Notes under the pieces: generated by a model
Seen by the model: the letters and a program-made list of their open reading frames with translations, nothing else
What the model was told of the DNA's origin: nothing
Databases searched by the model: none
Origin: Acidobacteriota bacterium
GTDB lineage: Bacteria; Acidobacteriota; Blastocatellia; UBA7656
Direction: 5' to 3'
Assembly: GCA_038040455.1 (NCBI GenBank)
Contig: JBBPIH010000006.1
Location: 47,176-111,175, forward strand
Length of the DNA stretch: 64,000 nucleotides
Position numbers and translations under genes: made by a program
In this document: positions 5,431 to 45,508 of the stretch, in pieces
Position numbering within the stretch: position 1 is the stretch's first letter
How the letters are laid out: each line of letters begins with the position of its first letter

Positions 5431-5603
5431 CGAGTAACCGCGATGAAACCTTTCTGCTTGAGCAGCATTCGCAGACCAACGCAAGTCTTGAATCATCTCA
5501 TCCTCCAAATCGCGGTTGTCGCCGCAGCCGCGCTTTGCGGAAACCGTCCACTACGCCGATCCCAAGACAGGACTTCCAGGTTCGAGCAGCCATCAGACCT
5601 CTA

Positions 5604-6530: not shown

Positions 6531-7517
6531 CGTCTATCCTCCCGTCACTTAGTAGCAAGTTTTCCGTTTCGCCGTGAATGTAGACGCTCGACGCCGCATA
6601 AGTGTTAGCCGTCTAAGAACTGAGAGTCCCGAGTCTCAGAATTTCGAAGATTCATACAAGTCAACAGCTAGACAACTGGGCTCACCTACCAATCTTGGTG
6701 CCAGCGTCTTTGGGTCGGCTAAACGCTGTGAGCACGAGGGGAAACGCGCTGCTGGGATATGCGCGGGGCGAACCCGATGTTCGATTCCGAGAAGGGATTT
6801 CCCAATGGCGGACTTTAGCAGTCAGTCACAGCGAATCCGAATGGACGGCGTGAGCCCACTCCCGTCAAGGAAGTTGCGGGAAGCTCGGGACCTGCGCTGC
6901 TACTCGAGTCTAATCCACCTCGTAGAGGTGGGATGTTTGTAGATTGTGATGCAAGCCGGCCCTCACCCCGTTCGGGGTGATATGTTTCGGCCTTAAGATG
7001 CGACGACACTCGGCGCGTATTCGTCATGAAAATCAAATATGTATTTTTCGTCGAACGCTTCGAACCTTCGAAGCAATCGCAGTTACTCTTCCCTGAATGA
7101 TCGCTTGGTATGATGTTGGTCCTGGTTCTGAATATACCGGACCACCGCATCGAGCGAGGAGCGAGAATGCGAAAAGCCGCGGAAGCCTTCCTGCCAGTGG
7201 AATCGACCCTTCACCCATCGATTATCATTTATGAAGCCGGTCGAGCTCTTCTTAACTCACGCACCAGGTCTGATAAGGCAAGACTCAGTTGCGAAGTGGG
7301 GAAAGTACTGGCGGAGGATCACCCTGGCAGGCTGTTGAAAAACTAACCTATCGCCACTAAGGCACGCGGGCACAAAGGAGCACAAAGCCGCACGACATAC
7401 TGCATTCACTGACTTGGTGCAGCTTCGTGTCTCTATGTCTTAGTGGCGAGCGCCCCTTTTTTGGGCAGCCTGCTAGGACTTAAAGAAGCGAGACAATCTG
7501 GACGCGGCCGAGCGTTC

Positions 7518-7583
7518 AGAGTACCGACTTTAGTCGGCCACTTCCGGCGTCGAAGTAGGTTTCCCGACTAAAGTCGGTACTCT
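7518..7583. repeat. perfect 20-bp inverted repeat (agagtaccgactttagtcgg ... ccgactaaagtcggtactct); each arm is itself self-complementary
   Basis: Read directly. It sits 22 bp downstream of the stop of ADOP 7605..10250. No U-run on either strand. Confidence 0.7.
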
Positions 7584-7604
7584 AAACGATTCATTGTGAG
7601 CGAC

Positions 7605-10250
7605 TCATTCGCAGCGCAACGCAACCATCGGGTCGACGCGCGACGCTCGACGTGCCGGAACAAAACAAGCAGCCAACGCCACGAGGACCAGCAGCAATGG
7701 AACTCCAGTGAAGACGACCGGATCGGTCGGACTGACCTCGAATAGCAGGCTTGCCATCGCTCGTGTTAGAACGAGAGCGCCACCAGCTCCGATTGCAATG
7801 CCGGCCGCGATGAGCAGCATACCTTCTCGTAGAACCAGACGAAGCAGAACACGCGGTTGTGCCCCGAGCGCCAGTCGGATGCCAAATTCATTCTTCCGGC
7901 TCCCGACATAGAGTGACATTGTGCCGTAGATCCCTACTGCTGCGAGGAGCAAAGCCAAAACCGAGAAGGAGGTCAGCAGCAGATTCATCAACCGCTGGCT
8001 ATTGAGCGTTCGACCGATGACATCGTCCATGGATCTGATCGAATACACCGGGATGTCGGGATCCAACCCGGACACAGCGGCCCTGACTGCACCGATGGTC
8101 GAGTTTGGAGGGCCGTCGGTTCTAATAACAAGCTTAGCCAGCACCGTCGGCGATTGTGTGAGTGGAGCATAGATGTGAGGCTGCAGCTTCTCCGCCAGGT
8201 CGCCGTGTTTTATTCCGCCAACCACCCCCACTATCGTCATCCATTGCATATCACCAGTGGTCTCGACTCTTTTTCCCAGAGCGTCGCCGTCCGGCCAATA
8301 CATTCGGGCCAGTGTTTCATCTACTATCGCTACCGGTTGCGAGTCGCTTTTGTCCGATTCCAAGAAATCTCTTCCGCGCAGCAAAGGGATTCCCATTGCC
8401 TGAAGGTTTCCTGGCGTCATCGCCAGTAGCTGAGCTTGTACTCCTTCATCACCGGTCCCCGGTTCGTGTCCCTCCACGATAAAGTTGTCAGTGTTGTCAT
8501 CGCCGACAAACGGAATACCCGTGGTGAGCCCCGCCGCGCGAACCCCCGGCAGGCTGCCCAGTCGATCGAGCAGACTCTGGTAGAACTGTAGCGATTGTTC
8601 TGGCTTTGGATATTTGCGAGCCGGAAGAGCGAGGGACATTGTCAGCAGCTTCTCCGGGTTAAATCCGAGATCAACGGACTGCAGACGTTGAAAGCTCATC
8701 AGCAGCAATCCCGCGCCGATCAGCAACACAAACGAGAGTGCGAACTGGGCAGTCACAAGCACGCTATTTGATCGGCGGCTTGAAGTGCCGCCGCGTCCTC
8801 CTTCGTGCATCGCCGCAACCATCCCCATGCGATAGGCTCGCAGCGCAGGCATCATCCCAAACAGCAGCCCGGTCAGCACGGCGAGGCCGGCCGTGAACGC
8901 CAGCACGCGTCCGTCGACCGTCACCACTTCAATTCTCGGTATTCCGGCCGTGGGCATCCTGTCGAGCATTCGCACGCCGAGCCAGGCCAGCATCACGCCG
9001 CCTGCTGCGCCGATGAACGCGAGCACCAGGCTCTCGGTCAGGAGTTGCCTGGCGACGCGAGACGGCGTCGCGCCGAGCGCGAACCGAACGGCAATTTCTC
9101 TGACCCGCGAAGTGGCCCGCGCCAACAGCAAGTTCGCGACATTGGCGCAAGCGATTAACAGCACCAGTCCTACTGCACACAGCAAGATGAGCAGAGGCTT
9201 TTGGGTAGATCCGACCATCGCTTGCTTCAGCGGCGTGACTATGGTCTTCAGGGCAGAGCCCTGATCGAGCGGTACTCTGCTTTCGCTTATGTCGGGATGC
9301 TGGCGAGCGTAGTCCCAAATCACTGAAGTAGTTTCCGCCTCTGCCTCTGACGGTGATAGACCTGCCCCAAGCCGCCCTATCGCTCTCAGGAAGTAGGGGG
9401 CGGTTCTGGTTGGATTCAGCGCGAGTGGAATCCAGATCTCGGTTTCCGGCCGAGGAAAGCTGAAGCCCGCGGGCATAACGCCGACCACCTCGATCGCGGT
9501 GCTGTTCAGGTTCAAGGACCGGCCGACTATGTTGGGATCGCCGGCAAACCGCCGCTGCCAAAAACCAAAGCTGATAACGCAGACGCCATTGTTGCCGGGC
9601 GTATCCTCGCCGGGACGAAAAGTTCGTCCGAGGACCGGTGGAAGACCGACCACCTTGAAGAAATCGGCGCTGACATTGCCGATGGAAACGCGTTCCGGGT
9701 CACTATCTCCAGTAAGATTCGCGCCGCTGGTAGAATAAGCGGCCACGGCTTCAAGCGACTGTGTGTTGTCACGCAATGCCGCGAAACTCGCCTGCGAAAG
9801 ACTCCAGGCGTCCAGTCCGAGTTGCCGTTGCGATTGCACCACCCTCACCAGGCGATCGGGCTGCTCATATGGGAGGGGGCGCAGGAGAATACCGTCAACC
9901 AGACTGAAGATCGCGGTATTCACGCCGATCCCAAGCGCGAGAGTGATCACAACGATTGCGGTGAAGCCCGGATTCTTTCGAAGCATCCGCAGCGCATAGC
10001 GCGCGTCCAGCCATACCTGCTCGATCGTTGCTCCCGATCGTACATCCCTCACTTGCTCTTTTACCTGATCGACTCCTCCAATCTCGATTCGCGCTGCTCG
10101 CCGTGCTGCTTCTGCACTCATCCCTCCGTCGACCTTCTCTTCGATGAGCATCGCAAGATGCGCGCTCATTTCTTCATCGAGCTCGCGTTCGACGTGATCT
10201 TTGTGAAACAAGTTCGATAACAGACTTCGAAGGCGATAGAACAACGACAT
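7605..10250 (-). CDS. ADOP-family permease, long form (881 aa; MacB_PCD + FtsX, duplicated 4-TM modules)
   Basis: C-terminal ...[11 protein letters not shown] signature. The N-terminal ~75-aa extension ([16 protein letters not shown]...[11 protein letters not shown]) precedes the conserved [31 protein letters not shown]1. Confidence 0.9.
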
Positions 10251-12340: not shown

Positions 12341-12378
12341 AACCCTGAACCCGGAACCCTGAACCCGGAACTCCGACT

Positions 12379-14823: not shown

Positions 14824-14980
14824 GTTCCGGGTTCAGGGTTCCGAGTTCAAGGTTCAGGGTTTCTGGTTTTTCGTTTCTAGTTTTTGGTCTCTGATCTCGG
14901 CTTCTGGTTTCCGACTCCTACTTTCGTAACCAAGAACCAGAAACCAGAAACCAAAAACCCTGAACCTAACCCCGGAACCG
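14824..14980. repeat. heptamer-run palindrome (left arm GGTTCAG/GGTTTCT runs 14824-14888; right arm AGAAACC/CTGAACC runs 14929-14980)
   Basis: Read directly. Fills the gap between the stop of ADOP 14986..17403 and the RBS of ADOP 12379..14805. Confidence 0.75.
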
Positions 14981-22794: not shown

Positions 22795-23010
22795 TTTCTG
22801 GTTTCCCTTTTAGTTTCTGGTTTCTAGTGGCTTGTACCAGCCATTTCGCTAGCGATTGATGGGTACGAAATCCGTGCTAATCCGTCAAACCCGCGTCATC
22901 CGTGGTCTATTAGTTCGTAGCATTGCCCAGCGCCGCATAGACCACGGATGACACTGATTCGACGGATTTGCGCGGATAAAAAATCCAACCAGAAACCAGA
23001 AACCACAAAC
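22795..23010. repeat. nested palindrome: outer GTTTCTG-type heptamer arms (22795-22830 / 22986-23010) around inner inverted repeats gtcatccgtggtctat/atagaccacggatgac and aatccgtc/gacggatt
   Basis: Read directly. Confidence 0.7.
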
Positions 23011-23794
23011 CTATTCGTACCTCAGTGCCACCATCGGATCGACCTTCGTCGCCCGGCGAGCAGGCACAAAGCAAGCTCCCAGAGCCACGACGGCCAGTAT
23101 CACCGAAACGCTCACAAATGTTTTCGGGTCGGTCGCGCTCACTCCGTAGAGCAGCCCCGAGATGACCCGGGTTAAGGCAAAAGAGCCCGCGAGCCCAAAC
23201 GCTATCCCGATCAAGACCAGTTTCAACCCGTGCCCGACAATCATCCTCAGCACTTCTGAGGACCGTATAGCTGTCACTATTAAGAGTAAGTTTGTGACCT
23301 ATGATACCGGGGTCGTGACCGAATCGTCGCTCCCACAATCCGTAGCTCAACACCACCACTCGCTCGCTGTCAGGTCTGTCATCCTCCGGAAGCAATGTTC
23401 GCCCAAGCGTGGCACTGACACCGAGCATCTGAAAAGCGTTTGCTGAAATCCTCACGCCCTGCATGCGTTCGGGCTCGTCGGTCCCCGTCAGGCTCGCGCC
23501 CCAGTTGGCAAAGGCCGCTATCTGCTCGAGCGTTTCGCTGCGGTCTCGATAATCAATAAAGTCGGGAATTGAGAAAAAGGCTTTGTCTCTATCAACCCGA
23601 GTTGACCATATCCAGACCAGCTTTTGCGAATTCTCGAATGGCAGCTTGCGAATCAGCACGGCGTTGACCAGGCTGAAGATCGCCGTGTTTGCGCCTATAC
23701 CTATGGCCAGCGTGAGCGTTGCCACAAGGGTGAATGTTGGTCTCTTCGCCAGCATTCGAATGCTGTAGCGCATGTCTTGAAGCAGAGTTTCCAT
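23011..23794 (-). pseudogene. ADOP permease pseudogene with a ~1.6-kb internal deletion (N-terminal ~178 codons and C-terminal 88 codons retained in different frames)
   Basis: 23260-23794 encodes METLLQDMRYSIRMLAKRPTFT...[13 protein letters not shown], then nonsense. 23011-23277 encodes ...[17 protein letters not shown]...[15 protein letters not shown] in another frame. Confidence 0.8.
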
Positions 23795-23817: not shown

Positions 23818-23903
23818 AGAGTTCCGAGTTCAGAGGCAGAATTCAGAGTGGCTTCCCACTATCCAACCCCGAACCACGAACCCGGAACTCTGAACCTAGC
23901 GCC
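23818..23903. repeat. heptamer-run palindrome, GTTCAGA/GTTCCGA type
   Basis: ctgttcagagttccgagttcagagg ... ccaaccccgaaccacgaacccggaactctgaacc, read directly. Confidence 0.65.
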
Positions 23904-25432: not shown

Positions 25433-25585
25433 CAGTTCCGGGTTCAGGGTTTAGGGTTCAGGGTTCAGGGTTCCGGGTTCAGGGTTCGTGGTTCCGAGTT
25501 GACGGTAGAAGATTCTGAACTATGAACTCTGAACCTCAACCCTGAACCCGGAACCCTGAACCCTGAACCCGGAACCCGGAACCCT
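25433..25585. repeat. heptamer-run palindrome, GGTTCAG type (~9 heptamers per arm)
   Basis: ttcagttccgggttcagggtttagggttcagggttcagggttccgggttcagggttcgtggttccgag ... ctgaactatgaactctgaacctcaaccctgaacccggaaccctgaaccctgaacccggaacccggaacc, read directly. This one lies upstream of the amidohydrolase rather than of an ADOP. Confidence 0.75.
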
Positions 25586-25586
25586 T

Positions 25587-28275: not shown

Positions 28276-29604
28276 TCAACTCAACTCCAGCGCCACAATC
28301 ATCTTTCGATCGCGGACATAGAGCTTTGTTCCTGAAAGAGTCGGCGGCGTCCACGCCCGGTTGGTCAGGAGATTTGTTTTTGAGATCACCTTCATCCCCT
28401 GGGGTGACAGCGCGACCAACGCGAGTACGCAGTCTTCATCGAGCAAAATCACTTTGCCGTCGGCGTAAACAAAATTTGCTTTTGGAAAGGTGCGATCCTG
28501 CCAGACCGTATTGCCAGTTCGCACATCTACCGCCGTCATCGGCGCGGGGCCGAAATCTCCGCTCGATCCATACACCAGATCGCCGAGCCGGATCATCGTG
28601 CTGTGATGCACGCGCATTCGCCGGGAAGCCCACAGTTCCTTGACTGTGGTTTTTCCGTCGGTTTGATTCAACTGCAGGGCGCGACTCCCACCGCTGTATG
28701 CGGATGACACGACCAGAATGTTGTCGGCGCCCCAGACCGGCAAGCTGATGTTCAGTCCCCAGTCGCAATTGTGAGGATGGCTCCAGAGCAGCTCGCCGTT
28801 GTTCGGATTCATGCCGACGATGTGATCGGCGAGCACGATTACAAGCTGGTCCTGTCCGTCAACGTTGATGATGGTTGGGGTTGACGGCGAGAGTTTGAAG
28901 TCCTGTTTCTTCCAGACGACCGCTCCCGTTTTTTGATCGAAAGCCATCAGCGCCTGGCCGGCTCCGCCGACGGTCACAATGACGGTGTTCTTCCACGCGA
29001 GCGGACTGCAGGAATACCCTCGGCCCATCTTCGTTCCGCCATACTCTCGATAAAGATCGTGGGACCACACGACGCTCCCCGATTTTTTATCAAAGGCCTG
29101 CATCTTGCCGATGACGCCCACAGTGAAGAGCAGATCGCCGGCAATAACCGGCGTCGCATGCGGGCCATTGCCGTTTTCCATCGCCAGTCCGGTGGTCGGC
29201 GCAGCGTTGCTCTTCTCCCAGATCGTTTTTCCGTTAGCCGCGTCCAGGGCAACGACAAACTCCTGGTCGCCTTTGCTGTACATCGTGTAGAGCCGGCCCC
29301 CATCGGCAATGATCGAGGAATGGCCTTCGCCGAGTTCACGACTCCACAATCGTTTCGGTCCCTCGCCGGGCCACGTCGACGCAAGCCCCTTCGCTTCAAC
29401 CATGAAGTTGCGCTGCGGCCCGCCCCATTGCGGCCAGCCCGGTGACTGCGCAAACGCGCCGGTGCTCGCGAATAAGAGCAAAAGCAAGAGCCAACCTCCC
29501 TTCCGGACCTGTGAACCTGCACTGAGTTCGACTCTGTTGAAGCGCGACTTCGAGGCAGGAACTCGCGCGCGATAGACATGGTCTTGCTGCAATGTTTGCA
29601 TCAT
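28276..29604 (-). CDS. secreted PQQ-like beta-propeller repeat protein (BamB/PQQ-repeat family); start uncertain (GTG 29616 or ATG 29604/29601)
   Basis: Signal peptide ...GGWLLLLLLFASTGAFAQ after a long basic n-region, then WPQWGGPQRNF and repeated PQQ-type blades. It overlaps the stop of the upstream gene (GTGA). Confidence 0.75.
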   Translation of the reverse strand: MMQTLQQDHVYRARVPASKSRFNRVELSAGSQVRKGGWLLLLLLFASTGAFAQSPGWPQWGGPQRNFMVEAKGLASTWPGEGPKRLWSRELGEGHSSIIADGGRLYTMYSKGDQEFVVALDAANGKTIWEKSNAAPTTGLAMENGNGPHATPVIAGDLLFTVGVIGKMQAFDKKSGSVVWSHDLYREYGGTKMGRGYSCSPLAWKNTVIVTVGGAGQALMAFDQKTGAVVWKKQDFKLSPSTPTIINVDGQDQLVIVLADHIVGMNPNNGELLWSHPHNCDWGLNISLPVWGADNILVVSSAYSGGSRALQLNQTDGKTTVKELWASRRMRVHHSTMIRLGDLVYGSSGDFGPAPMTAVDVRTGNTVWQDRTFPKANFVYADGKVILLDEDCVLALVALSPQGMKVISKTNLLTNRAWTPPTLSGTKLYVRDRKMIVALELS

Positions 29605-29612
29605 CCCTCCTA

Positions 29613-30758
29613 TCACTGTTTCTTGAGCACGGTGTTAACGATCGGTGCCACCAGTTCTTCGCAGAAGGCTCTTTCAAGGTTCGTCATCAGCGCGATGGTA
29701 AAGCGTTTTTCGGGGATGAGATAAAGATACGTGCGTGTGCCGGCTTGGCTGCCGTCGTTCCATACCCGTTTCGGTTCGCCTGGACCAGCATCGGCGATTA
29801 GCCAGCCCAGACCGTAAGACTGCAATTCCTTACCGTCCGCGGTCTTCTGGCGCGTCCACATCTGCTCAAGCGTCCGCGGCTTCACCAGCTTGCCCTGCTG
29901 GATCGCGATGGCAAACTTCGCGAGGTCTTCCACGGTCGAAACAAGACCGCCGCCGGGCAGCCTGCCGCTGGTGTCGAGCGGCGGAGCATCCCTCACGTCG
30001 CCGTTCGCGGACTTGCTGTACAGCAGGGCGCGGTCCGGAATATTCGCCTTGATGTCATCAGTCTGCGTTCGCGTCATGCCCGCAGGCTTGAAGATTTTCT
30101 CCCGGAGGTAATCAGGGTACTTCATCCCGGAAGCGCCTTCGATCACGCAGCCCAGCACCGAGTAACCGAGAGTCGAGTAGAGATACTTCGTACCCGGTTC
30201 GTGCAGCAGCGGTTCGTCCTTGAAGAAACTTAATGATTCAACGACGCTGTCGAAATGACGATTTGAAGGATCGGAAAACTTGTGATGGCGGATGCCGCCC
30301 AAATGCGCAAGCAGTTGTCGCGAAGTGACTGGCCATGGTTTTGGCGGGAAAGCCGGGCAGTATTTCTGAACCGGCGCATCAAGATCGATTTTCCCCTGCT
30401 CTGCCAACTGCATCACGGCTGTGGCTGTGATCGACTTGGCTATTGAAGCCAGTCGGTAAACCGTCGTCGCGGTGGCCGGTGTCTTCTTCTCGGGATCCGC
30501 CAGACCGAAGCCTTTCGACCAGAGTAGGCGATTGTCAGTAACGATCGCTATGGAAACAGCCGGCGCTTTGTGCTTCGCCATCCATTCTGAAACGGCCGCT
30601 TCGATCTTTGCGGTTTCGCCGGTCGACAGGCTCCGCGCGTCTTGCGCAAAGGTGTTCGCGCCGATGCCGAGCGCGAGCGTTATGACCGCGACCGCGAAGC
30701 CGGGCTTCTTGAGAAGGATTCGAACGGCGTACCTCAGGTCTTGCAAAAGATTCTGCAT
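29613..30758 (-). CDS. chimeric protein: ADOP N-terminal 36 aa (TM1) fused to a class-C-like beta-lactamase-family serine hydrolase
   Basis: [36 protein letters not shown] is near-identical to the N-terminus of ADOP 30929..33343. It runs straight into FAQD..., then [11 protein letters not shown] (SxxK) and a [15 protein letters not shown]-box. The fusion point coincides with a signal-peptidase-like AFA-Q site. Confidence 0.85.
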
Positions 30759-30774
30759 AATCTCCGCCTGTATG

Positions 30775-30925
30775 AGGGTTCAGGATTCCGGGTTCCGGGT
30801 TTCCGGGTTCCGAGTTTCTGGTTTCTGGTTTCTAGTTTCTGGTTACGAGACTGGACAGGGCCAAACCAGAAACCCTGAACTCGGACTCTGAACCCTGAAC
30901 TCTGAGCCCACGAACCCGGAACCCG
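30775..30925. repeat. heptamer-run palindrome, GGTTCAG/GGTTTCT type
   Basis: Read directly. The left arm is near-identical to 33358-33415. Confidence 0.75.
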
Positions 30926-30928
30926 GGT

Positions 30929-33343
30929 TCATTCGCCCCTCAGCGCGGCCATAGGATCGACCTTGGTGGCTCGACGGGCTGGAAGAAAACAAGCTCCCAG
31001 AGCCACTCCTGCCAGCAACACCGGCACGATGATGAAAGTTGCTGGGTCGGTCGGTCCGACCTCAAAAAGCAAGCTTGCCATCACCCGGGTGACCGCGAAC
31101 GCGGCCGCGAGCCCTATCCCGACGCCAATCAGCGCGAGTCTCATTCCCTGGCCAACCACGAGCTTCAACACATCAGACGGCTTCGCGCCAAGCGCAAGGC
31201 GGATTCCAATCTCGTGCCTGCGCTCAGTGACTGAATAAGAGATCACTCCATAGATCCCGACTGCGGCCAACACCAGCGCCAAACCCGCAAGCCCGCCGTA
31301 CAGCAGAATTGACAAACGCTGCGGCGAAACCGACTCCGAGACGAGTTGATCCATCGACCGCAGTGAACCGATGGCCTGCTCTTTGTCCACAGCATAGATT
31401 TGCTCGCGCACCGCGCCGGCAACGGCAAACGGATCGACCGGGGTACGCAACGCGACGCTCATCGAGCCCGGCGTCGCCTGGCGGAACGGAACGTAGATCT
31501 CCGCCACGGGCGGCGTCCCCAATGCTTCGTGCCGAATGTCTCGGACTACCCCCACGATCTCTTGCAACCCTGTCGTGTCCCACCTGAAGTCGATCCGCTT
31601 GCCGATCGGTTCTTCGTCAGCGAGAAAGCGGCGGACGAAGGCCTCGTTCACTATCGCCACCTGAGGAGCGCCAGCGATGTCGCGCGCGGCGAAGAACCGG
31701 CCTTTGATCAGCGGGATGCGCATCGCCTCAAAGTAGCCTTCGCTCGCTATGCGCTTGTCGGCGACGGGCAACGAATCAGGTGGATAGACCTGCCCTTCAA
31801 TACTGAACCCGCCGTTGGTGCCGCCGCCTGCAAGCGGCAGATCGTTCACCGCGCCGGCAGCTTCAATGCCGGGCAAAGAAGACATTCGCTCCAGCACCTG
31901 GTCGAAAACTCGAGCGCGCATCGCCGGTTCAGCGTATCTCGTGCCGGATAGACTCAGCCCGAACGTGACGATGTTCCCAGGATCGAATCCCTTGGGAACC
32001 TGGAGCAGCCGGACAAAGCTGCTTATCATCAGCCCGGCGGCAATCAACAGGACCAGCGACAAGGCCATCTCGCTGATCACCAGAAAACCGCGCGCGCGGT
32101 CACGGCCATGCGCGGCGCCGGCAACAGCGCCCCCCTCTTTCAAAATCTCATAAGTGCCCATCTTCACGGCTCGCAGCGCAGGCCACAGTCCAAACAGAAT
32201 CCCTGTTCCCAACGACACTGCCAGCGTGAACAAGAGCACTCTCCAGTCTGTGTCAATTTCCTCGATCCGAGGCAGCTTCGACCGCGCCAGATCGGCAATC
32301 AGATTCATCAGCCACAGCGAGACCAACAATCCAAGCCCGCCGCCGATCAGCGCAAGCAGAATGCTCTCGGTCAGAAGCTGGCGAATCAAACGCCGGCGGC
32401 TGGCGCCTATGGCCAGGCGGATCGCAATCTCCTTTTGACGAGCGCTGGCGCGAGCGAGGAGCAGATTGGCCACGTTGGCGCAGCCAATCAGAAGCACAAA
32501 CCCCACGGCGGCCAAAAGTAGAAGCAGCCCGGAGCGCGAGTCCTTTACTATGCTGTCCTTCAAACCGTGAAGCTGGACGTCGTGATTGATCGAGCGCTCC
32601 TGCTTCAATCGTTCCGCCAGAATGCTCATCTCCCGCCGCGCCTGGTCGAGCCCAACTCCATCTCGCAATCGCCCGATCACCGAAAGAAAATGAAGACCGC
32701 GAGGCGCGCGCGATGCGTCGAGTCTCAACGGCGCCCAGACTTCTCGCAGGTCGCCCGCCGACGCGTCGATTGGGCGCACTGATCGAAAGCTCTGAGGCAG
32801 AACACCCACGATCGTGTACGCCCTCGCGTCGAGCGTCATCGTTGTGCCCAACACAGCCGGGTCGGCGCCGAAACGGCGTTGCCACAAACCGTAGCTGATC
32901 AGCGCAACCAGTTGGCTGCCCGGTCTTTCTTCTTCCAACGAAATGTTCCGGCCCAGGACTGGCGTGACCCCAAGCGTCGGGAACAGGTTACTGGAAACGC
33001 GGCAACCGAATAACTGCTCGGGCTCGCCGCGCCCGGTCATGGTGTACGCGGTGTTGAAGTAGGCGGCGACTTCCTGGAACACACCGTTCTGCTGTTTCCA
33101 ATCCACGAACTCGGGATAGTCAGTCGGGGTCTCATCATCGGGAGGCTGCTTGTCTCTCATTAACACGATCTGTTCCGGATGAAAGTAAGGCAGCGGACGC
33201 AGCAGCACCGCGTTGACCGCGCTGAAAATCGCGGTGTTCGCGCCGATGCCGAGCGCGAGCGTTATCAACGCGACCGTCGCAAAGCCGCGCTTCTTGAGAA
33301 GGATTCGAACTGCATACCTCAGGTCTTGCAAGAGAGTCTGCAT
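30929..33343 (-). CDS. ADOP-family permease (804 aa)
   Basis: [41 protein letters not shown]...; C-terminal [15 protein letters not shown]. Confidence 0.9.
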
Positions 33344-33357
33344 AGTTTCCTCCGGAA

Positions 33358-33415
33358 TGAGGGTTCAGGGTTCAGGGTTCCGAGTTTCTGGTTTCTGGTT
33401 TCTAGTTTCTGGTTT
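33358..33415. repeat. heptamer-run half-element (left arm only: gggttcagggttcagggttccgagtttctggtttctggtttctagtttctggttt)
   Basis: Read directly. No complementary arm nearby; it abuts an ADOP 5' remnant. Confidence 0.65.
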
Positions 33416-33511
33416 GCCCAAGGCGAGTGTGAGGATGGCAATCAATGAGAAGCCAGGTTTCCTGAGCAACATTCGCGAACCGTAGCGCAGGTCTTGGAGT
33501 AGTGCTTCCAT
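33416..33511 (-). pseudogene. orphan ADOP 5' fragment (32 codons: [32 protein letters not shown])
   Basis: The reverse-complement translation matches ADOP TM1 exactly, then stops by running into the heptamer arm. Confidence 0.7.
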
Positions 33512-33540
33512 AATCAACTCTCCGTTTCAAAGTCTTTGCT

Positions 33541-33678
33541 TCACGTTCGAAAAACGCTGAATACTGTCCCAGCAACGCCGATTGCGATCGCCATCGCCAG
33601 TACGGCAACAACGGTGACTTCGGGACTCTTGCGCAGAAGCCGCAAACCAAAACGAATGTCAGACATCCATCCGGACAT
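33541..33678 (-). pseudogene. orphan 5' fragment of a long-form ADOP-like permease (45 codons: MSGWMSDIRFGLRLLRKSPEVTVVAVLAMAIAIGVAGTVFSVFRT*)
   Basis: Resembles the N-terminal TM1 region of the 881-aa permease type. It is preceded by its own GAAGATT palindrome. Confidence 0.55.
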
Positions 33679-33701
33679 TTTGATCCTTTCACCGGCACAT
33701 T

Positions 33702-33800
33702 CGAAGATTGAAGATTGAAGATTGAGGATCGAAGGACTGCCGGTCGCCGCTATCTTCTATCGTCCATCTTCTATCCTCGATCCTCGATCCTCGATCCTCG
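33702..33800. repeat. heptamer-run palindrome, GAAGATT/GAGGATC type (3-4 heptamers per arm)
   Basis: cgaagattgaagattgaagattgaggatcgaagga ... ctatcttctatcgtccatcttctatcctcgatcctcgatcctcgatcctcg, read directly. Confidence 0.75.
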
Positions 33801-33804
33801 TTCG

Positions 33805-36240
33805 TCACTGGTATCTCAGCGCCTCCATCGGATCTACCTTCGTCGCCCGTCGACCAGGCACGAAACAGGCTCCGAGAGCCACTCCTACGAGTAGCAGCGA
33901 AATGGCCAGGAACGTCAAAGGATCGCTAGGGCTCACGCCGTAGAGAAAGCTCGAGATCAAACGTGTGGCGATGAAGGCCAGCGCAAGCCCGATCGTTACG
34001 CCCATTGAAACGATGACCAGGCCCTCTCGAAGAACGAGCTTCATTACATCCCGCGTGTCCGCTCCGAGCGCCATGCGGATTCCGAACTCGTGTGTACGCT
34101 GAGCGACCGAAAACGACATCACGCCGTAAACCCCCACCGCCGCCAGCGCCAGAGCCAAAACAGCGAAGACTGCAAGCAACAGCATCGTGAAACGGGGTTG
34201 AGAGACCGAGTTTGACAGGACCTGCTCCATCGTTTGAATCCGGGCGACCGGCAAGTCTTTATCTATGGTTTGAACGACGCTCCTGATAGGCCCGGCGAGC
34301 GTTATTGGACCAGAAGAGGCGCGCGCAACTACGGTCATCGAGCGCCATACCCCGAGCGCCGTAACGTAAGCGTTCTGAGAGTGCAGGAAGTACATCTCCG
34401 GTCTCGGTCTGATGTCCAGGCCCTGGTCCTTTGTGTCTTTTGTTATTCCCACTATGGTGAACAAGGGACTGCCGGGCACGCCCAAATCTATCCGCTTGCC
34501 GACCGGGTCTTCATCAGGCCAGAAGCTGGTCATAGCATCATTGATTATGACCACGGCGGGCGCATCTTCCCGGTCTGACTCCATGAAGTAACGACCCTTT
34601 AGAAGTGGAATACCCATCGCGCAGAAATAATCCCGGCTTATCATTCGATATTCGGCGTTCTGAGCCACATCATCGGACAAGCGAGGTTTTCCCTCGATCT
34701 CAAATGACGCATTGGAATTGAATCCGCTTAAAGGAAGCACTGTTACCGTGCCTACAGACTGCACTCCCGGCAATGATTCCGCTCTTTCCAGCAATTGCTT
34801 GTAAAAAGCATCGACCTGTTGACGCTGCGGATACCGGGATTGTGGCAAGGCGATTTGGGCGGTCAGCACATTCTTTGGATCGAAGCCGGCGTCTACATTG
34901 AGCAGCCGCCAGAAGCTCTTAATCATCAGGCCCGCGCCTATGAGAAGCACGAGTGAGAGAGCTATCTCAGATACTACGAGGACCCGGCGAGTGTGGCGGC
35001 GTCCCCGATCGCCCGTACTCCCCCTACCCTCTTTAAAGGATGCGTGCAGGTCCATCTTTGAAGATTGTAGTCCGGGCACTAATCCAAACATTATTCCCGC
35101 AAGAACCGAGATCGCGAGGGTGAAGATGAGCACCGTGGCATCCACGCCGACTTCGCTGGTTCGGGGGATGGTTGCGGGCGCAATAGCAAGCAAAGCCTCA
35201 ACACCCCAGAATGCCAGCAGCAGTCCCATCGCTCCTCCCATCAAACTCAAGAGCACGCTCTCGGTCAGGAGTTGCTGAATGATGCGGCTGCGGCCAGCGC
35301 CGAGGGCGATGCGAATGGCAATCTCTTTTTGCCTCGCTTCAGCCCGGGCAAGGAGCAGATTGGCGACGTTGGCGCAGGCGATCAGCAGCACGAATCCGAT
35401 TGCCGCAAGCAGGACGAGAAGAGCCGGGCGAATGTCTCCTACGATCAATTCATGCAGCGGAATCAAGTTCACGCTCTGCGTTGAATTCACGCCTTCCGGG
35501 TATCGCTTTCGATACTCTTCCGCAAGCTGAGCGGCAAGAGTGTTCATCCCCACGCGAGCTTGCTCCAGCGTCACATTCGATCTAAGGCGCGCGATTGCAT
35601 TGTAACTGCGGTCTCTGGGACTCACGTTAGCGCGATCAAGCCCCAGAGGAAGCCATAGCTGGACATCTTGTTTATCGAAGTAGAAGCCGCCAGGCATAAC
35701 TCCGATGATTGTGCGGCTGAGGCCGTTGAGGCTCACTTGTTGACCGATGATATTTGGATCAGAGCCGAAGCGCCGTTGCCAGAGGCCATAGCTCAACACG
35801 ACGACTTGAGCCGGCCCCGGCTTATCGTCTTCAGCGGTGAAGGCGCGGCCCAGCGCGGGTTGAACGCCGACGGAAGGAAAGAAACCGGCAGACGCCCACG
35901 TAGCGGCAACGCGCTCAGGCTCGCCGCTGCCTGTGAGGCTCGTGGCCCCTGTTGCAAATGCGGCGACCTCTTCAAAGACGTGATTCTGTTCTCGGAAGTC
36001 GAAGAATTCGAGGTCTGTAAGCCCCAGCGTGTGCCCTCCCCTGGACGGGTGCCATATCGTCACTATCCGGTCAGGGTTTGGATAGGGTAAAGGACGAAGC
36101 AGCACGCCGTTGACGACACTGAAGATCGCAGTGTTGGCGCCAATGCCTAAAGTCAAAGCGAGCACGGCCACGGCAGTGAAGCCAGGTCTCTTGAGCAGCA
36201 TCCGAACGCCATAGCGAATGTCCTGAATTATGTTTTCCAT
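33805..36240 (-). CDS. ADOP-family permease (811 aa)
   Basis: MENIIQDIRYGVRMLLKRPGFT...; C-terminal [15 protein letters not shown]. Confidence 0.9.
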   Translation of the reverse strand: MENIIQDIRYGVRMLLKRPGFTAVAVLALTLGIGANTAIFSVVNGVLLRPLPYPNPDRIVTIWHPSRGGHTLGLTDLEFFDFREQNHVFEEVAAFATGATSLTGSGEPERVAATWASAGFFPSVGVQPALGRAFTAEDDKPGPAQVVVLSYGLWQRRFGSDPNIIGQQVSLNGLSRTIIGVMPGGFYFDKQDVQLWLPLGLDRANVSPRDRSYNAIARLRSNVTLEQARVGMNTLAAQLAEEYRKRYPEGVNSTQSVNLIPLHELIVGDIRPALLVLLAAIGFVLLIACANVANLLLARAEARQKEIAIRIALGAGRSRIIQQLLTESVLLSLMGGAMGLLLAFWGVEALLAIAPATIPRTSEVGVDATVLIFTLAISVLAGIMFGLVPGLQSSKMDLHASFKEGRGSTGDRGRRHTRRVLVVSEIALSLVLLIGAGLMIKSFWRLLNVDAGFDPKNVLTAQIALPQSRYPQRQQVDAFYKQLLERAESLPGVQSVGTVTVLPLSGFNSNASFEIEGKPRLSDDVAQNAEYRMISRDYFCAMGIPLLKGRYFMESDREDAPAVVIINDAMTSFWPDEDPVGKRIDLGVPGSPLFTIVGITKDTKDQGLDIRPRPEMYFLHSQNAYVTALGVWRSMTVVARASSGPITLAGPIRSVVQTIDKDLPVARIQTMEQVLSNSVSQPRFTMLLLAVFAVLALALAAVGVYGVMSFSVAQRTHEFGIRMALGADTRDVMKLVLREGLVIVSMGVTIGLALAFIATRLISSFLYGVSPSDPLTFLAISLLLVGVALGACFVPGRRATKVDPMEALRYQ

Positions 36241-41289: not shown

Positions 41290-41305
41290 TATTCCTCCCG
41301 TTATC

Positions 41306-41548
41306 GGTTCAGGGTTCAGGGTTCAGGGTTCCGGGTTCAGGGTTCAGGGTTCAGGGTTCAGGGTTCAGGGTTCAGGGTTCCGAGTTCAGGGTTCAGTATT
41401 CAGCGATTTAAATTGTTCGCCAATCATCGTCAGAGATCCTTTAGACACCTTCACACAATGAGCAATCAACCCTCAACTCGAAACCCGGAACCCGGAACCC
41501 TGAACCCTGAACCCTGAACCCGAAACCCTGAACCCGAAACCCTGAACC
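41306..41548. repeat. expanded heptamer-run palindrome: ~14 tandem GGTTCAG/GGTTCCG units (41306-41405) facing ~11 CCCTGAA/CCCGGAA units (41468-41548)
   Basis: Read directly. This is the largest copy. Confidence 0.8.
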
Positions 41549-43978
41549 CTATTCATATCGCAGCGCCACCAACGGGTCCACCTTCGCCGCTCGCCGCGCC
41601 GGAACGAAGCAGGCTCCCAGAGCCACTCCTGCCAGCAGGATAGAAATTCCCAGGAACGTAATCGGGTCTGTCGCGCTCACGCCGTACAACAGACTAGTCA
41701 TCAGATGAGTCAAGGCAAACGATGCGATTAACCCGACGACGATGCCGATCGCAACTAAAATCATCCCCTGGCCGACAACCATCTTCAAAACATCGCTCGC
41801 CTTCGCCCCGAGCGCCATTCGAATCCCGATTTCAGGCGTGCGCTGTGTGACCGAATAACTCATGACGCCGTATATTCCCGCTGCCGACAAAATCAGTGCG
41901 ATGCTCCCAAAGATGCCAAGCAACACGAGGTTGAATCGCGGTTGCGTCACCGCATCCGTGACGATGTTTTCCATGCTTCGTATCTCAGCCACAGGTTGTT
42001 CTCTATCCACTTCCTGCACAGATTCTCGAACAGCCGCGGCCAGGCTCGCCGGCTCGAGGGCGGTGCGAATGACGAAAGACATCCCTGCAAAAGGGTCCTG
42101 CATGTATGAGGTGTAAATGTCCGGCAACGGTTCAGTGTTCAACTCGATGTTTCGGACATTTGCCACTACGCCGACAATCTCAAACCATATCGGTTGACCG
42201 TTATTTGAACCTCCCATGTTGATTCGCTTGCCGATAGGGTTCTCGCCCGCGAAGTCACGTTCGGCGGCCACTTGATTGATAAGAACAACCAGGGGCACCG
42301 ACACATTGTCGCGTTCAGTGAGGGCGCGGCCTTGCACGATCGGTATGTCCATGGCTCGAAAGTAGTCAGGGCTGACGTTGCGGTAGTTAACTCCGGGCCA
42401 CTGGTCGGGGGGAACCTGCGGACGACCTTCAATTCTGATTCCGGTGGTTGGGCCTTTTGAAAGGGGAAGCGTATTAATCATTCCGACCGAGTCAACGCCT
42501 CCAATAGCGCTTATGCGTTCGATTGCCTGTCTGTAAAAAGAGATATACTGGGCGTCTTCCGTGAATCTCGCGCCCGACGGACTCAGCCTCATGGTCAGCA
42601 CTCGCTGTGAATTGAAGCCTTTATTGACCGATTGCAACTCCAGAAAACTGCGGAACAGCAACCCCGCCCCGATAAGCAACACGAAACAGAGTGCCACTTC
42701 GGACACGACCAGAAGATTCCGAAGCCGGTTGCGCCGACCGCCGCCCGACGTGCCGCGCGAGCTCTCTTTGAGTGATTCGTGAATGTCGGTGGTCGAGACC
42801 TGCAAAGCCGGCGCAAGCCCGAATACAATACCCGTAAGCAATGACACTAAAAGGGTGAAACCAAGCACGGCGTAATCCAGGTTGATGTCCTGAAGCCGCG
42901 GAAAATCTTTCGGCAGCAGCGTTGTCATTACGTCGATGCCCCACAGCGCCAGCAGCAATCCGAGCGCGCCGCCCAACAGCGCGAGCATAGAACTCTCCGT
43001 AAGCAGTTGACGAATTACGCGCAATCGAGACGCGCCCAACGCCGCGCGAATCGCCATCTCCTTTTGACGTGAAGTGGCGCGCGCGAGCAATAAATTCGCC
43101 ACGTTCGCGCACGCTATCAGCAGCACAAAACAGACTGCTCCCAGCAGCAGCCACAACACGTTGCTGGTGTCTCCGACCAGGTAGGTGTGGAGCGAGACAA
43201 CCCTGTTGAAGCGGTTGTTGTTTGTTTCGGGGTACTGCTCTCTGAGGCGCGCAGTTATGACCTCCATTTCGCTCTTCGCTTGCGAAAGCGGCACTCCGGG
43301 TTTGAGCAATCCAACAGTGCTCAAAAAGCCGAAGCCTCGCACTCGGGTGACATCCATCTGGTCATTAATGGCAGGAGCGAGTCTCAGCGGAGGAAGCCAT
43401 ACATCTGTCTTATCGGGATATTGAAAGCCTGCGGGTGCAATGCCTGCGACCGTGTAGCTTTTGCCATCCAGCGTAATTGAGTTGCCGACCAGCTCAACAC
43501 CGCCGAAGCGGCGCTGCCACAATGCATCGCTTATGACGGCAATAGGCGCATGGCCTGCCTGTTCATCGTCGGGAACGAACAAACGCCCTTGCTGCGCCCG
43601 AATGCCGAATATCTCGAAGAAATTTGCCGAAGTGATCGCGAGGTTGATGCGTTCAGCGTCGTTTGCCCCGGCGAGATTCGAGGTGCGAGTGAGGATCGCC
43701 GCGAGATGTTCGAAAACAGTATTCTGAGCCCGCCAGTCCAGGAAATTTGCGGGAGTAACCAGTCTGCGGCTGCCATCTTTGCCGATCTCTTGAATGGCTA
43801 CAATGCGATCAGCGTCGCGATACGGCAATGGACGTAGAAGCACAGCGTTGACTACGCTGAATATAGCGCTGTTTGCGCCTATTCCCAGGGCTAAGGCGAT
43901 GACGGCGACGGCGCTTAAGGCGGAATTGCGTCGCAGCACTCTCAATCCATATCGAACATCCTGCCAAAATGTTTGCAC
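41549..43978 (-). CDS. ADOP-family permease (809 aa; GTG start)
   Basis: [41 protein letters not shown]...; C-terminal RRAAKVDPLVALRYE. Confidence 0.9.
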   Translation of the reverse strand: MQTFWQDVRYGLRVLRRNSALSAVAVIALALGIGANSAIFSVVNAVLLRPLPYRDADRIVAIQEIGKDGSRRLVTPANFLDWRAQNTVFEHLAAILTRTSNLAGANDAERINLAITSANFFEIFGIRAQQGRLFVPDDEQAGHAPIAVISDALWQRRFGGVELVGNSITLDGKSYTVAGIAPAGFQYPDKTDVWLPPLRLAPAINDQMDVTRVRGFGFLSTVGLLKPGVPLSQAKSEMEVITARLREQYPETNNNRFNRVVSLHTYLVGDTSNVLWLLLGAVCFVLLIACANVANLLLARATSRQKEMAIRAALGASRLRVIRQLLTESSMLALLGGALGLLLALWGIDVMTTLLPKDFPRLQDINLDYAVLGFTLLVSLLTGIVFGLAPALQVSTTDIHESLKESSRGTSGGGRRNRLRNLLVVSEVALCFVLLIGAGLLFRSFLELQSVNKGFNSQRVLTMRLSPSGARFTEDAQYISFYRQAIERISAIGGVDSVGMINTLPLSKGPTTGIRIEGRPQVPPDQWPGVNYRNVSPDYFRAMDIPIVQGRALTERDNVSVPLVVLINQVAAERDFAGENPIGKRINMGGSNNGQPIWFEIVGVVANVRNIELNTEPLPDIYTSYMQDPFAGMSFVIRTALEPASLAAAVRESVQEVDREQPVAEIRSMENIVTDAVTQPRFNLVLLGIFGSIALILSAAGIYGVMSYSVTQRTPEIGIRMALGAKASDVLKMVVGQGMILVAIGIVVGLIASFALTHLMTSLLYGVSATDPITFLGISILLAGVALGACFVPARRAAKVDPLVALRYE

Positions 43979-43995: not shown

Positions 43996-44196
43996 AGGGT
44001 TCACGGTTTCGGGTTCAGGGTTCAGGGTTCACGGTTCAGGGTTTCTGGTTTCTGGGTTTCTGGATTTCTGGTTGCGAAACTGCACATCAGAAACCAGAAG
44101 CCAAGTCGAAAACTAGAACCGAAAACCAGAAGCTAGAAACCAGAAACCAGAAACAAAAGAACCCGGAACCCGGAACCCGGAACCCGGAACTCTGAA
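43996..44196. repeat. heptamer-run palindrome, GGTTCAG + GGTTTCT type, with a central gcgaaactgcacatcag
   Basis: Read directly. Confidence 0.75.
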
Positions 44197-44200
44197 CCTC

Positions 44201-45508
44201 TTACTTATCGCTCTTGTCCTTGTCTTTGTGCTCGTCGTCGGCGATCTTCTGGAAACGCTTGAAGCGCGGATCAGATCGGAGGTTATTAAGATCTTCGTCT
44301 CCGTGTATGTAACCCCCGATGTCGAATTCGGCCTTAACAGCCTTATCGAGCCAATCAAACGCCGCATCGCGATGGTTCATCATCGCGTGCGCGCACGCAA
44401 TGTTGTACATAGAAGTCAGCGGCCGATACCCAAACTGAATTGCGCGCTCGAAAGCTTCAATAGCCTTGGTGTGCTCGCTCGAAAAATGGAGCGCGTAGCC
44501 AAGGTTGAACCAGCCACGGCCATTGTTCGGCTCGTTTCGCAGGAATGATTCATATTTCTGGACCGCAGGCGCCCAACGTTGCTTCGAGTACTGCGAGCGC
44601 TCAGATTCATGTCCGCTGAATTGGGAGAGAGAAAGCAGCCCGCTCAACTCTTGGATGTTCTTGAAGCGCGCTTCACCGCGGAGGCTCGCTATATCGGGAT
44701 CGTGTGTAAGCTTGTCGACTTCGTCGAAGCCCGCATTGATCGACTTCTCGAGCCATTCAAGCCCCAGTGCTCGATCGCCCTTGAGCGCGTAGGTGCACGC
44801 AAGATTGTACATGGCAGACGCGCCGCGATAACCGAGGTGCTCGACCGCCTGGGCTAATGCGGTCGCAGCCCGGTCAAAATCGCGAAGCCTGAGTAGCCGC
44901 GAGCCCACTCTGTACCATTCATAACCATCCCGAGAGGACTCTCTCCTAAGCTGCTCGAAATTGCTGATCGCTTCCTCGAGTCTGGAGACGGTTTTATCCT
45001 TGGAGGGATTGTCTGATTTCTTGGTGAACGAAACCTTCTGCAGGATCACCTTGAATCGAGGGTCGGAACGCAGCGGATCAAGGTCCGAATCGTCTTTCAA
45101 AAGGTCGGGCCTGTCGAATCCCACCGCCAGTGACCGCTCGAGCCAGAACAGGGCGTTGTCTTTATCGTTGAGCAACGCGTACCCGCACGCGACATTGTAC
45201 ATACAGGTCGCCTGGCGATAGCGGAGACTAATCGAATGAGTGAAGGCTTCAATCGCTTCGACGTATTGGTCAGATTGATGCAACGCATAGCCGCGACTGA
45301 ACCAATACTCGCCGTCTCGCGTCTCTTTGTCGTCCTCAGTGGTGACCTTGCTCAGTTTCGCATTTTGAACAGATTCGTCTTTCGACTTTTCGGATTTGCG
45401 CTTTGCGTTCGGCTCGTCAGGCCGCGAATAAGCGGTCACCGAGAAGCACAACACCACAGCCAGCGATGCCAACCGGTTCAGACTAACTTTCATCGTCATG
45501 ACCTCCAT
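44201..45508 (-). CDS. secreted tetratricopeptide-repeat protein (435 aa)
   Basis: Signal peptide MKVSLNRLASLAVVLCFSVTAYS. Four or more TPR-like units built on YNxACxYAL...A..WLE.S...GF. Confidence 0.8.
   Translation of the reverse strand: MEVMTMKVSLNRLASLAVVLCFSVTAYSRPDEPNAKRKSEKSKDESVQNAKLSKVTTEDDKETRDGEYWFSRGYALHQSDQYVEAIEAFTHSISLRYRQATCMYNVACGYALLNDKDNALFWLERSLAVGFDRPDLLKDDSDLDPLRSDPRFKVILQKVSFTKKSDNPSKDKTVSRLEEAISNFEQLRRESSRDGYEWYRVGSRLLRLRDFDRAATALAQAVEHLGYRGASAMYNLACTYALKGDRALGLEWLEKSINAGFDEVDKLTHDPDIASLRGEARFKNIQELSGLLSLSQFSGHESERSQYSKQRWAPAVQKYESFLRNEPNNGRGWFNLGYALHFSSEHTKAIEAFERAIQFGYRPLTSMYNIACAHAMMNHRDAAFDWLDKAVKAEFDIGGYIHGDEDLNNLRSDPRFKRFQKIADDEHKDKDKSDK

Follow-up and report, generated by a model that had tools for sequence, protein, structure and literature searches.

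A chimeric serine hydrolase gene in an acidobacterial ADOP array, with a predicted signal peptide derived from a neighbouring permease gene

We analyzed a 64,000-nucleotide stretch of contig JBBPIH010000006.1 from an Acidobacteriota bacterium (assembly GCA_038040455.1), referred to here as the window and numbered from its first letter. ADOP permease genes form one long array across the window, in which at least 13 are full-length and all lie on the minus strand. Embedded in this array is a gene of 381 codons whose product has the body of a serine hydrolase and the first 36 residues of an ADOP permease. The corresponding database entry, MEK6321122.1, comes from a 176-kb contig of an Acidobacteriota metagenome-assembled genome (MAG). 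The gene, its parts and its upstream neighbor are as follows.

29613..30758, minus strand: chimeric gene, 381 aa (open reading frame (ORF); NCBI name 'serine hydrolase', MEK6321122.1, an exact match in the protein collection)
30651..30758, minus strand: ADOP-derived 5' coding module, codons 1-36, covering the permease N-terminal cytoplasmic helix and the first half of the first transmembrane helix (TM1)
29613..30650, minus strand: native hydrolase part, F37-A38 (the last two signal-peptide residues) and the mature LACTB-like domain
30759..30928, minus strand: heptamer-repeat palindrome between the stop codon of ADOP2 and the start of the chimera, followed by a GGAG ribosome-binding site
30929..33343, minus strand: ADOP2 permease, the living representative of the module's donor lineage (TIGR03434, 986 bits against a cut-off of 622)
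33344..33418, minus strand: 5' leader of ADOP2, nearly identical to that of the chimera and comprising one heptamer arm with a GGAGG site

The hydrolase body is complete. PF00144 (Beta-lactamase) covers residues 53-362, corresponding to profile positions 2-311 of 329, with 259 bits against a cut-off of 27 (E=8e-77); the Pfam scan of the chimera returned this domain and a weak PF13354 match, with neither MacB_PCD nor FtsX. The S-x-x-K box is S105-I-A-K108, which aligns with SISK of LACTB and SITK of Pab87, and the second catalytic box is Y194-S-T, aligned with YST of LACTB. A first-pass annotation of this DNA had described a complete SxxK/YSN domain; the domain and the SxxK box are as it stated, while the second box is Y-S-T. 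The third box, N334-D-G (residues 334-336), stands opposite the H-S-G of Pab87 (2qmi) and departs from the K/H-T/S-G pattern; this segment, unusual for the box, is kept in all of the 17 homologs that we read. Among solved structures, the body is closest to human LACTB (7v21, E=3e-49), followed by Pyrococcus Pab87 (2qmi, E=9e-39). Scores were far under the NCBIfam cut-offs for AmpH (102 vs 266) and bla_class_C (77.8 vs 415), which sets the protein apart from characterised beta-lactamases and from AmpH.

The origin of the 5' module was examined by aligning the DNA of 30560-30930 with that of 33145-33515 (both on the minus strand). Near-identity begins about 75 nt upstream of both ATG codons and ends at ...GGCGCGAACACC (GGC GCG AAC ACC), which is codon 36 of the chimera and codon 37 of ADOP2, the chimera having one codon fewer (GFA-VAV vs GFATVAL); similarity then collapses. 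Over the 105-nt coding module, the chimera shows 93.3% DNA identity to ADOP2 and 61-79% to the 12 other ADOP 5' ends of the window. The background among true ADOP paralogs for the same module is a median pair identity of 68% with a maximum of 78%. A DNA profile of ADOP 5' ends (nhmmer) also matches 30758-30651 over profile positions 1-111 (E=3e-25). ADOP2 itself, the adjacent upstream gene, carries MacB_PCD and FtsX domains; its orthologs at loci L004 and L010 are 91-92% identical at the protein level, and all other ADOPs compared reach at most 52% (full-length paralogs 40-52%). Because the module lies far above the paralog background and the paralogs of ADOP2 are distant, the module comes from the ADOP2 lineage specifically. 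The ~75 nt of leader ahead of it are of the same lineage.

Judged from these alignments, the gene is a real chimera made of two parts that have different nearest relatives and meet at a sharp junction. The first-pass annotation had reached the same view, and it is borne out by a module 93% identical to ADOP2 and by a body whose relatives outside the chimeric clade are 77-78% identical and have signal peptides; the nucleotide similarity is far over the paralog background and not due to chance. The near-identical upstream arm that it reported (30775-30843) is present as well, although what it called the left arm is really the one next to the start codon.

In order to determine how widely the fusion is shared, we searched for homologs in a 5.8-billion-protein collection. 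Four proteins (P0001-P0004, 90-95% identity) have the ADOP-like N-terminus and the same junction, ...GIGAN(T/A) followed by (F/L)AQ(D/G)A..., and a further chimeric sequence, P0242, lies within the 90% cluster of the window protein. With the window protein, this makes six distinct chimeric sequences, 90-95% identical, which come from NCBI MAGs and from JGI, ENA and Logan assemblies, on contigs of up to 182 kb. An ADOP motif or module next to the hydrolase was found in none of 116 protein homologs below 90% identity (all at most 78%), and the fusion was absent from 80 species-representative genome loci (45-78% identity) and from 80 metagenome loci, among the matches listed. All homologs read at 78% identity or less have ordinary signal peptides, e.g. 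P0005 (MKRPRLLITFALAVFISVQAAHA↓QSKQGLSANETEKIEAA, the arrow marking the cleavage site), the nearest of those outside the clade being 77-78% identical to the body. A search of 185,579 species-representative genomes returned no chimera or intermediate; the best match was 78% identical with a normal signal peptide, hence the chimeric clade is not represented there. The junction sequence had no exact match in a scan of JGI metagenome contigs, and a protein-guided JGI scan gave relatives of at most 54% identity among the matches listed, both results being uninformative on the abundance of the chimera.

The outgroups lack the fusion, which is therefore a derived trait confined to a single small clade. 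Derived sites (GTC ATA) are common to the chimeric 5' modules, which resemble one another slightly more (92-94%) than they resemble ADOP2 (90-92%); this points to a single origin. On this evidence, the fusion happened once, in the common ancestor of a small uncultured clade of soil Acidobacteriota that had already separated from the relatives at 77-78% identity, and it is fixed in this clade, being neither private to the window genome nor ancient. The first-pass annotation had left room for an N-terminus common to all orthologs, but the module is confined to sequences of at least 90% identity, namely P0001-P0004, P0242 and the protein of the window itself. Its description of a recent capture has to be given up for this genome: the event is at clade level, with at least six sequences sharing the junction.

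The two parts of the gene evolve at different rates. Among the chimeras, the N-terminal module is 62-94% identical and the mature domain 91-96.5%, and across 10 pairs the ratio of the non-synonymous divergence (dN) in the module to that in the mature domain is about 1.3 to 4.6 (at least 2 in 9 of the 10). The ratio of non-synonymous to synonymous divergence (dN/dS) of the chimera module is 0.46-1.08 in nine pairs and 0.23 in the tenth, compared with 0.08-0.20 for the same module in genuine ADOP2 genes, values that for 36 codons rest on few sites and are indicative only. In the P0004/P0242 lineage, the ADOP-invariant motifs QDLRY and PGF have decayed to QELSD and RRC (QELSDAGRM, RRC), whereas the ADOP2 of the same genome keeps them. 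Two independent in-frame indels (3 and 6 nt) occurred in the module, yet all six sequences keep the frame, and purifying selection acts on the mature domain (dN/dS 0.17-0.49). An internal alternative start was considered and rejected, since the first in-frame methionine past the junction (M60) falls inside the catalytic domain; the ORF contains no alternative start codon upstream of the domain. The kept frame, the purifying selection, the lack of an alternative start and the signal-peptide-like evolution of the module together support a translated, functional gene in which the ADOP fragment has been repurposed as a signal peptide. By these rates, the graft now appears to evolve like a signal peptide and unlike its ADOP counterpart.

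A separate observation concerns synonymous divergence (dS) between the window and L004, which is 0.075 for the hydrolase body (29613-30650) and 0.26 for the adjoining ADOP2 (30929-33343). This more than 3-fold difference hints that lineages recently exchanged part of the locus by homologous recombination, or that codon constraints differ strongly between the two genes.

The junction lies two residues ahead of the native A↓Q signal-peptidase site (...GANT followed by FA↓QD...). Side by side, ...GANT-FA↓Q of the chimera matches ...VQAAHA↓QSKQGLSANETEKIEAA of P0005 without gaps, as judged by eye; of the native signal peptide only the final two residues remain, together with the A↓Q site, and everything upstream is replaced. 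The n-region of the chimera has four positive residues (R9, R13, K17 and K18) ahead of the uncharged run. The longest such run is 19-23 residues in the chimeras, 29 in ADOP2, and a median of 18 (interquartile range 18-21) in 116 conventional homologs. The site variants T-F-A↓Q, T-L-A↓Q and A-F-A↓Q, judged by rule only, are in register with the A-x-A↓Q of the homologs. The residues at -2, -1 and +1 (F/L-A↓Q) are kept in 6/6 chimeric sequences, and in the P0004/P0242 lineage T36 has changed to A, giving the canonical A-F-A↓Q.

MacB-type permeases have a cytoplasmic N-terminus and a TM1 that runs outward (N-in/C-out), so the orientation of the graft is that of a signal peptide. In experimental work on h-region length, signal-anchor helices have become cleavable signal peptides once their hydrophobic core was shortened. 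In the chimera, the truncated TM1 helix would engage Sec like a signal peptide and would be too short for a stable anchor, its uncharged run being 19-23 residues long and that of the permease 29; the T/A-x-A↓Q site follows it. The ADOP module thus most likely works as a cleavable Sec signal peptide that brings the hydrolase to the periplasm. The first-pass annotation had assigned TM1 the role of a signal peptide or anchor, and the role as signal peptide gains indirect support from the position of the junction, the length of the run and the relaxed evolution of the module.

The chimera is not the only place in the window where the 5' end of an ADOP gene is found apart from its body. Three free stubs and one further fused stub were identified.

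33415..33511, minus strand: free ADOP 5' stub of 32 codons, running straight into the ADOP2 heptamer arm (nhmmer E=4e-19, profile positions 1-97)
33541..33678, minus strand: free ADOP 5' stub of 41 codons (33678-33556), MSGWMSDIRFGL...TVFS, then VFRT and a stop (nhmmer E=8e-12)
5436-5496, minus strand: free, frameshifted ADOP 5' stub of ~27 codons (scan with the 5' profile)
29535..29601, minus strand: decayed ADOP 5' stub that forms the ATG and the ~22 first codons of a PQQ-like beta-propeller gene, 28276..29601 (nhmmer E=0.004)

Two of the free stubs (33415-33511 and 33541-33678) are stacked ahead of ADOP2, and the first of these is a deletion remnant. The ADOP of which the 41-codon stub is a remnant is intact (808 aa) at L004 and L007, and at L010 this gene is reduced to a 32-codon stub, truncated independently at a different breakpoint; at L093, another ADOP at the position of the 41-codon stub is split into 503 and 275 aa. 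The stub of the PQQ-like gene is also recognized at L004, L007 and L010 (nhmmer E=1.5e-5 to 1.1e-4), with profile position 1 on the ATG in every case. At L001, the position of this stub is occupied by a full ADOP of 805 aa, whose start lies 14 nt past the hydrolase stop codon, and the PQQ start and the L001 ADOP share their context: hydrolase stop, GGAGGG, then ATGCAnACA...CAnGACC. Most PQQ homologs have short ordinary signal peptides and a subset has an ADOP-like extension, e.g. P0130 (MQKLRDVRYPSRVPANKPRF). From this resemblance, we regard the fused stub of the PQQ-like gene as a sibling case of the process that gave rise to the chimera. The breakpoints of stubs and fusions fall at codons ~22, 27, 32, 32, 36 and 41 (six cases: the three free stubs of the window, the two fused ones and that of L010). 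With its free stubs, fused stubs and split ADOP, the array visibly loses ADOP bodies by deletion while 5' stubs persist.

Some further details of these genes were noted. The PQQ stub (MQTLQQDHVYRARVPASKSRF...) precedes the protein's own signal peptide (RKGGWLLLLLLFASTGAFA↓QS), and NCBI annotates the PQQ-like gene from a later start (403 aa). A 294-aa ORF at 22910-23794 (minus strand) is an ADOP with a large internal out-of-frame deletion that joins ~185 N-terminal codons to the gene end; the end part is read in another frame and then enters a heptamer arm, and the L004 ortholog is intact (816 aa). At L007 (the P0002 locus, 7439-10001), the chimera is present and ADOP2 is absent; the sequence past the stop codon of the preceding ADOP (aacccgggttccgggttcgtggttcgtag...) looks like an inter-heptamer deletion that removed all of ADOP2.

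The leader of the chimera is part of a wider family of repeats. Inter-ADOP palindromes of tandem heptamers (GAACCCN / CAGAAAC units) place one arm after the upstream stop codon and the other before the next start codon. Heptamer runs were mapped at the following positions.

30775-30848 (approximate): start-proximal arm of the palindrome upstream of the chimera
30860-30925 (approximate): distal arm of the same palindrome
14824-14969, 25435-25586, 30775-30925, 41300-41551 and 43999-44201: palindromes
12341-12375, 23865-23899 and 33363-33418: single heptamer arms

The start-proximal arm of the chimera (30792-30848) shares an exact 40-nt stretch with the ADOP2 arm at 33363-33418, and the other heptamer arms of the window lack this stretch. 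The palindrome copy at 30777-30909 has a predicted RNA fold of -80.7 kcal/mol (z=-4.7), and none of 200 shuffled sequences was as stable. Such a hairpin-dominated 170-nt spacer could equally well terminate or attenuate transcription. No part of the window matched Rfam, which means that the heptamer palindrome belongs to no described RNA family. The palindrome upstream of the chimera is of the window's heptamer type at L011 and L093 and of a different type at L004, L007 and L010. In these three (L004 ~9870-10000, L007 ~9870-10000 and L010 ~3290-3421), another long inverted repeat takes the place of the heptamer palindrome or fills it (ggttcgtagtcccgccttcaggcggaag ... cttccgc.gaaggcgggactacgaacc), and only the last ~30 nt before the ATG are like an ADOP leader. 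The leader arms are identical over these 40 nt in the window genome only, which suggests that the leader was recently converted or copied anew at this locus. The unit sequences also vary: after the stop codon of the ADOP at 33805..36240, the heptamer architecture at 33700-33800 (minus strand) is built of CGAGGAT/ATCCTCG and AATCTTC, and the palindromes of L007 (~7340-7430) and L010 are built of GTAGTCC/GGACTAC. It appears that the heptamer architecture is conserved and the unit sequence is not.

The arrangement of the closest non-chimeric relatives suggests how the fusion could have arisen, because in these genomes the hydrolase is also embedded among ADOPs. At L012, an ADOP stops ~15 nt before the hydrolase start, and at L001 one ADOP lies 159 nt upstream of the hydrolase and another 14 nt downstream. 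In the ancestor of the clade, the hydrolase would have sat directly downstream of an ADOP within the tandem array, and this ADOP would have been a recent duplicate of ADOP2. A deletion of ~2.4 kb, from codon 37 of the duplicate to the c-region of the hydrolase signal peptide, would have left an in-frame stub comprising the ADOP ribosome-binding site, the start codon, the positive N-terminal helix and half of TM1. Replacement of the signal peptide by such a deletion, with the ADOP-derived stub working as a cleavable Sec signal peptide, is in our judgment the best explanation as a whole and a probable one. The first-pass annotation had proposed a segmental duplication or a recombination event; the chimeric origin stands, and an inserted copy fits the locus less well than a deletion does.

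Several points weigh against this explanation. No genome was found in which ADOP2, an ADOP2-like duplicate and a hydrolase that keeps its signal peptide follow one another as the postulated intermediate, and the homolog series has a gap between 78% and 90% identity. The deletion route requires a prior duplication of ADOP2 or a conversion of a 5' end, the other paralogs being at most 79% identical in the module. As a signal peptide, the graft has an unusually long n-region (~19 residues), and position -3 is Thr, not Ala, in 4/6 chimeric sequences; the small number of sites behind its dN/dS has been mentioned. A consensus scan found no sigma-70-like promoter site, although this consensus may not apply to the phylum. 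The capture of the ADOP promoter that the first-pass annotation proposed would therefore be conjectural, the more so as L004, L007 and L010 have another palindrome ahead of the chimera.

A direct duplicative graft would have copied only the leader and the first 36-37 codons of ADOP2 in place of the hydrolase 5' end, with no full extra ADOP ever lying between the two; template switching or illegitimate recombination close to the heptamer palindrome, which forms a hairpin, would be the mechanism. Such a graft would explain why the donor is specifically ADOP2, today's immediate upstream neighbor, and why the short duplicated segment ends in a strongly folding palindrome; moreover, the leader arms of the window share 40/40 nt while the coding modules differ at 8/105 sites, which indicates that short segments can be copied or converted here. 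Two simultaneous novel junctions would be required, however, and ADOP bodies have repeatedly been lost in this array leaving 5' stubs, with the PQQ stub exactly where L001 has a full ADOP. Furthermore, the non-chimeric relatives already have an ADOP directly upstream of the hydrolase. We consider such a graft, and this route to it, possible but doubtful. Gene conversion that is still under way, in place of one old event, could also keep the hydrolase 5' end similar to ADOP2: the leader arms are identical over 40 nt in the window, and L004, L007 and L010 are without this arm upstream of the chimera. In the coding module, however, the window chimera differs from its own ADOP2 at 8 sites and from the ADOP2 of other genomes at 10-11, which is no within-genome excess; at L093, the modules of the chimera and of ADOP2 differ at 24/108 sites, and the chimeric modules share derived sites across genomes. 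Such conversion is therefore very unlikely as the source of the chimera itself, and may perhaps have affected the leader arm in the window genome.

The other alternatives concern the state of the product. If the ADOP module remained uncleaved, it would be a signal anchor that keeps the hydrolase tethered on the outer side of the inner membrane, perhaps close to ADOP transporters. The segment does stem from a genuine transmembrane helix with a long amphipathic cytoplasmic helix in front of it, and position -3 is occupied by Thr in four of the six sequences. Nevertheless, only the first half of TM1 is kept, with an uncharged run of 19-23 residues versus 29; F/L-A↓Q is conserved in 6/6 sequences, one lineage having improved its site to A-F-A; and the ADOP-specific residues are decaying. 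For these reasons, an anchor is rather unlikely. Adjacency of hydrolase and ADOP is no general association: a functional hydrolase-transporter module was considered and dropped, because an ADOP occurs within 4 kb at only 4/80 hydrolase loci and no functional coupling with the transporter is thus implied. Finally, the window derives from a MAG and the region is repeat-rich, which raises the question of a mis-assembly of two genes or of a dead pseudogene. At least six distinct sequences, obtained from independent samples with independent assemblers and on contigs up to 182 kb, have the same junction, which rules out a mis-assembly, and an intact frame, in-frame indels and a body under purifying selection argue against a dead gene, so that an artefact or pseudogene is hardly conceivable.

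The locus appears to provide a well-resolved natural case of an exported bacterial protein whose signal peptide was exchanged for part of a membrane protein, in which the donor lineage, the junction, the outgroups and the later 'signal-peptidisation' are all visible in the sequence. It also illustrates the decay of very large acidobacterial ADOP arrays, whose bodies are deleted while 5' stubs persist and can be co-opted by neighboring genes. For annotation, the label is plain 'serine hydrolase', and the N-terminal similarity to ADOP is no sign of a functional link to the transporter. The one aspect that could go beyond anecdote is the clustering of the six independent breakpoints together with the two adjacent co-options. 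The clustering at codons ~22-41 could reflect a recombination hotspot, toxicity of longer fragments, or selection for retention of a leader or 5' cassette. A bolder reading, which we think unlikely, is that ADOP 5' ends and their heptamer palindromes form a preferentially retained or recombination-prone 'start-and-export cassette'. If so, a surviving stub would either stay as a small leader ORF or become the start and export signal of the next gene, and new N-termini of acidobacterial periplasmic proteins would arise systematically from ADOP arrays, the present case being more than an isolated accident.

Our literature searches on ADOP and on the replacement of signal peptides by gene fusion returned nothing pertinent. 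Compared with known systems, the chimera resembles the LACTB / Pab87-type hydrolases (PF00144, MEROPS S12) in its full domain and its S-x-x-K and Y-S-T boxes, and differs from them in the N-D-G third box and the foreign N-terminus. Its first 36 residues and leader are homologous to the start of ADOP genes (TIGR03434; MacB_PCD and FtsX, internally duplicated), but with half of TM1 only and neither MacB_PCD nor FtsX it carries a fragment of this family and is not a member of it. Like the shortened signal-anchor helices, it has a transmembrane helix of signal-peptide length followed by a putative small-x-small site and is predicted to be cleavable; those helices were engineered, whereas the chimera would be a natural evolutionary instance, known here from its sequence.

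In classical laboratory deletion fusions of the lac/trp type, as in natural fused ORFs, a downstream gene is put under the translation start of an upstream gene. The chimera shares with them the in-frame join of an upstream 5' end to a downstream body and the retained ribosome-binding site and start codon. It differs in that the retained fragment is predicted to supply the export signal as well, and in that two adjacent genes of the array are affected, the hydrolase and the PQQ-like propeller, beside several unfused stubs. The chimera is therefore a well-documented case of a known type of event and no new molecular system, neat and not surprising to specialists.

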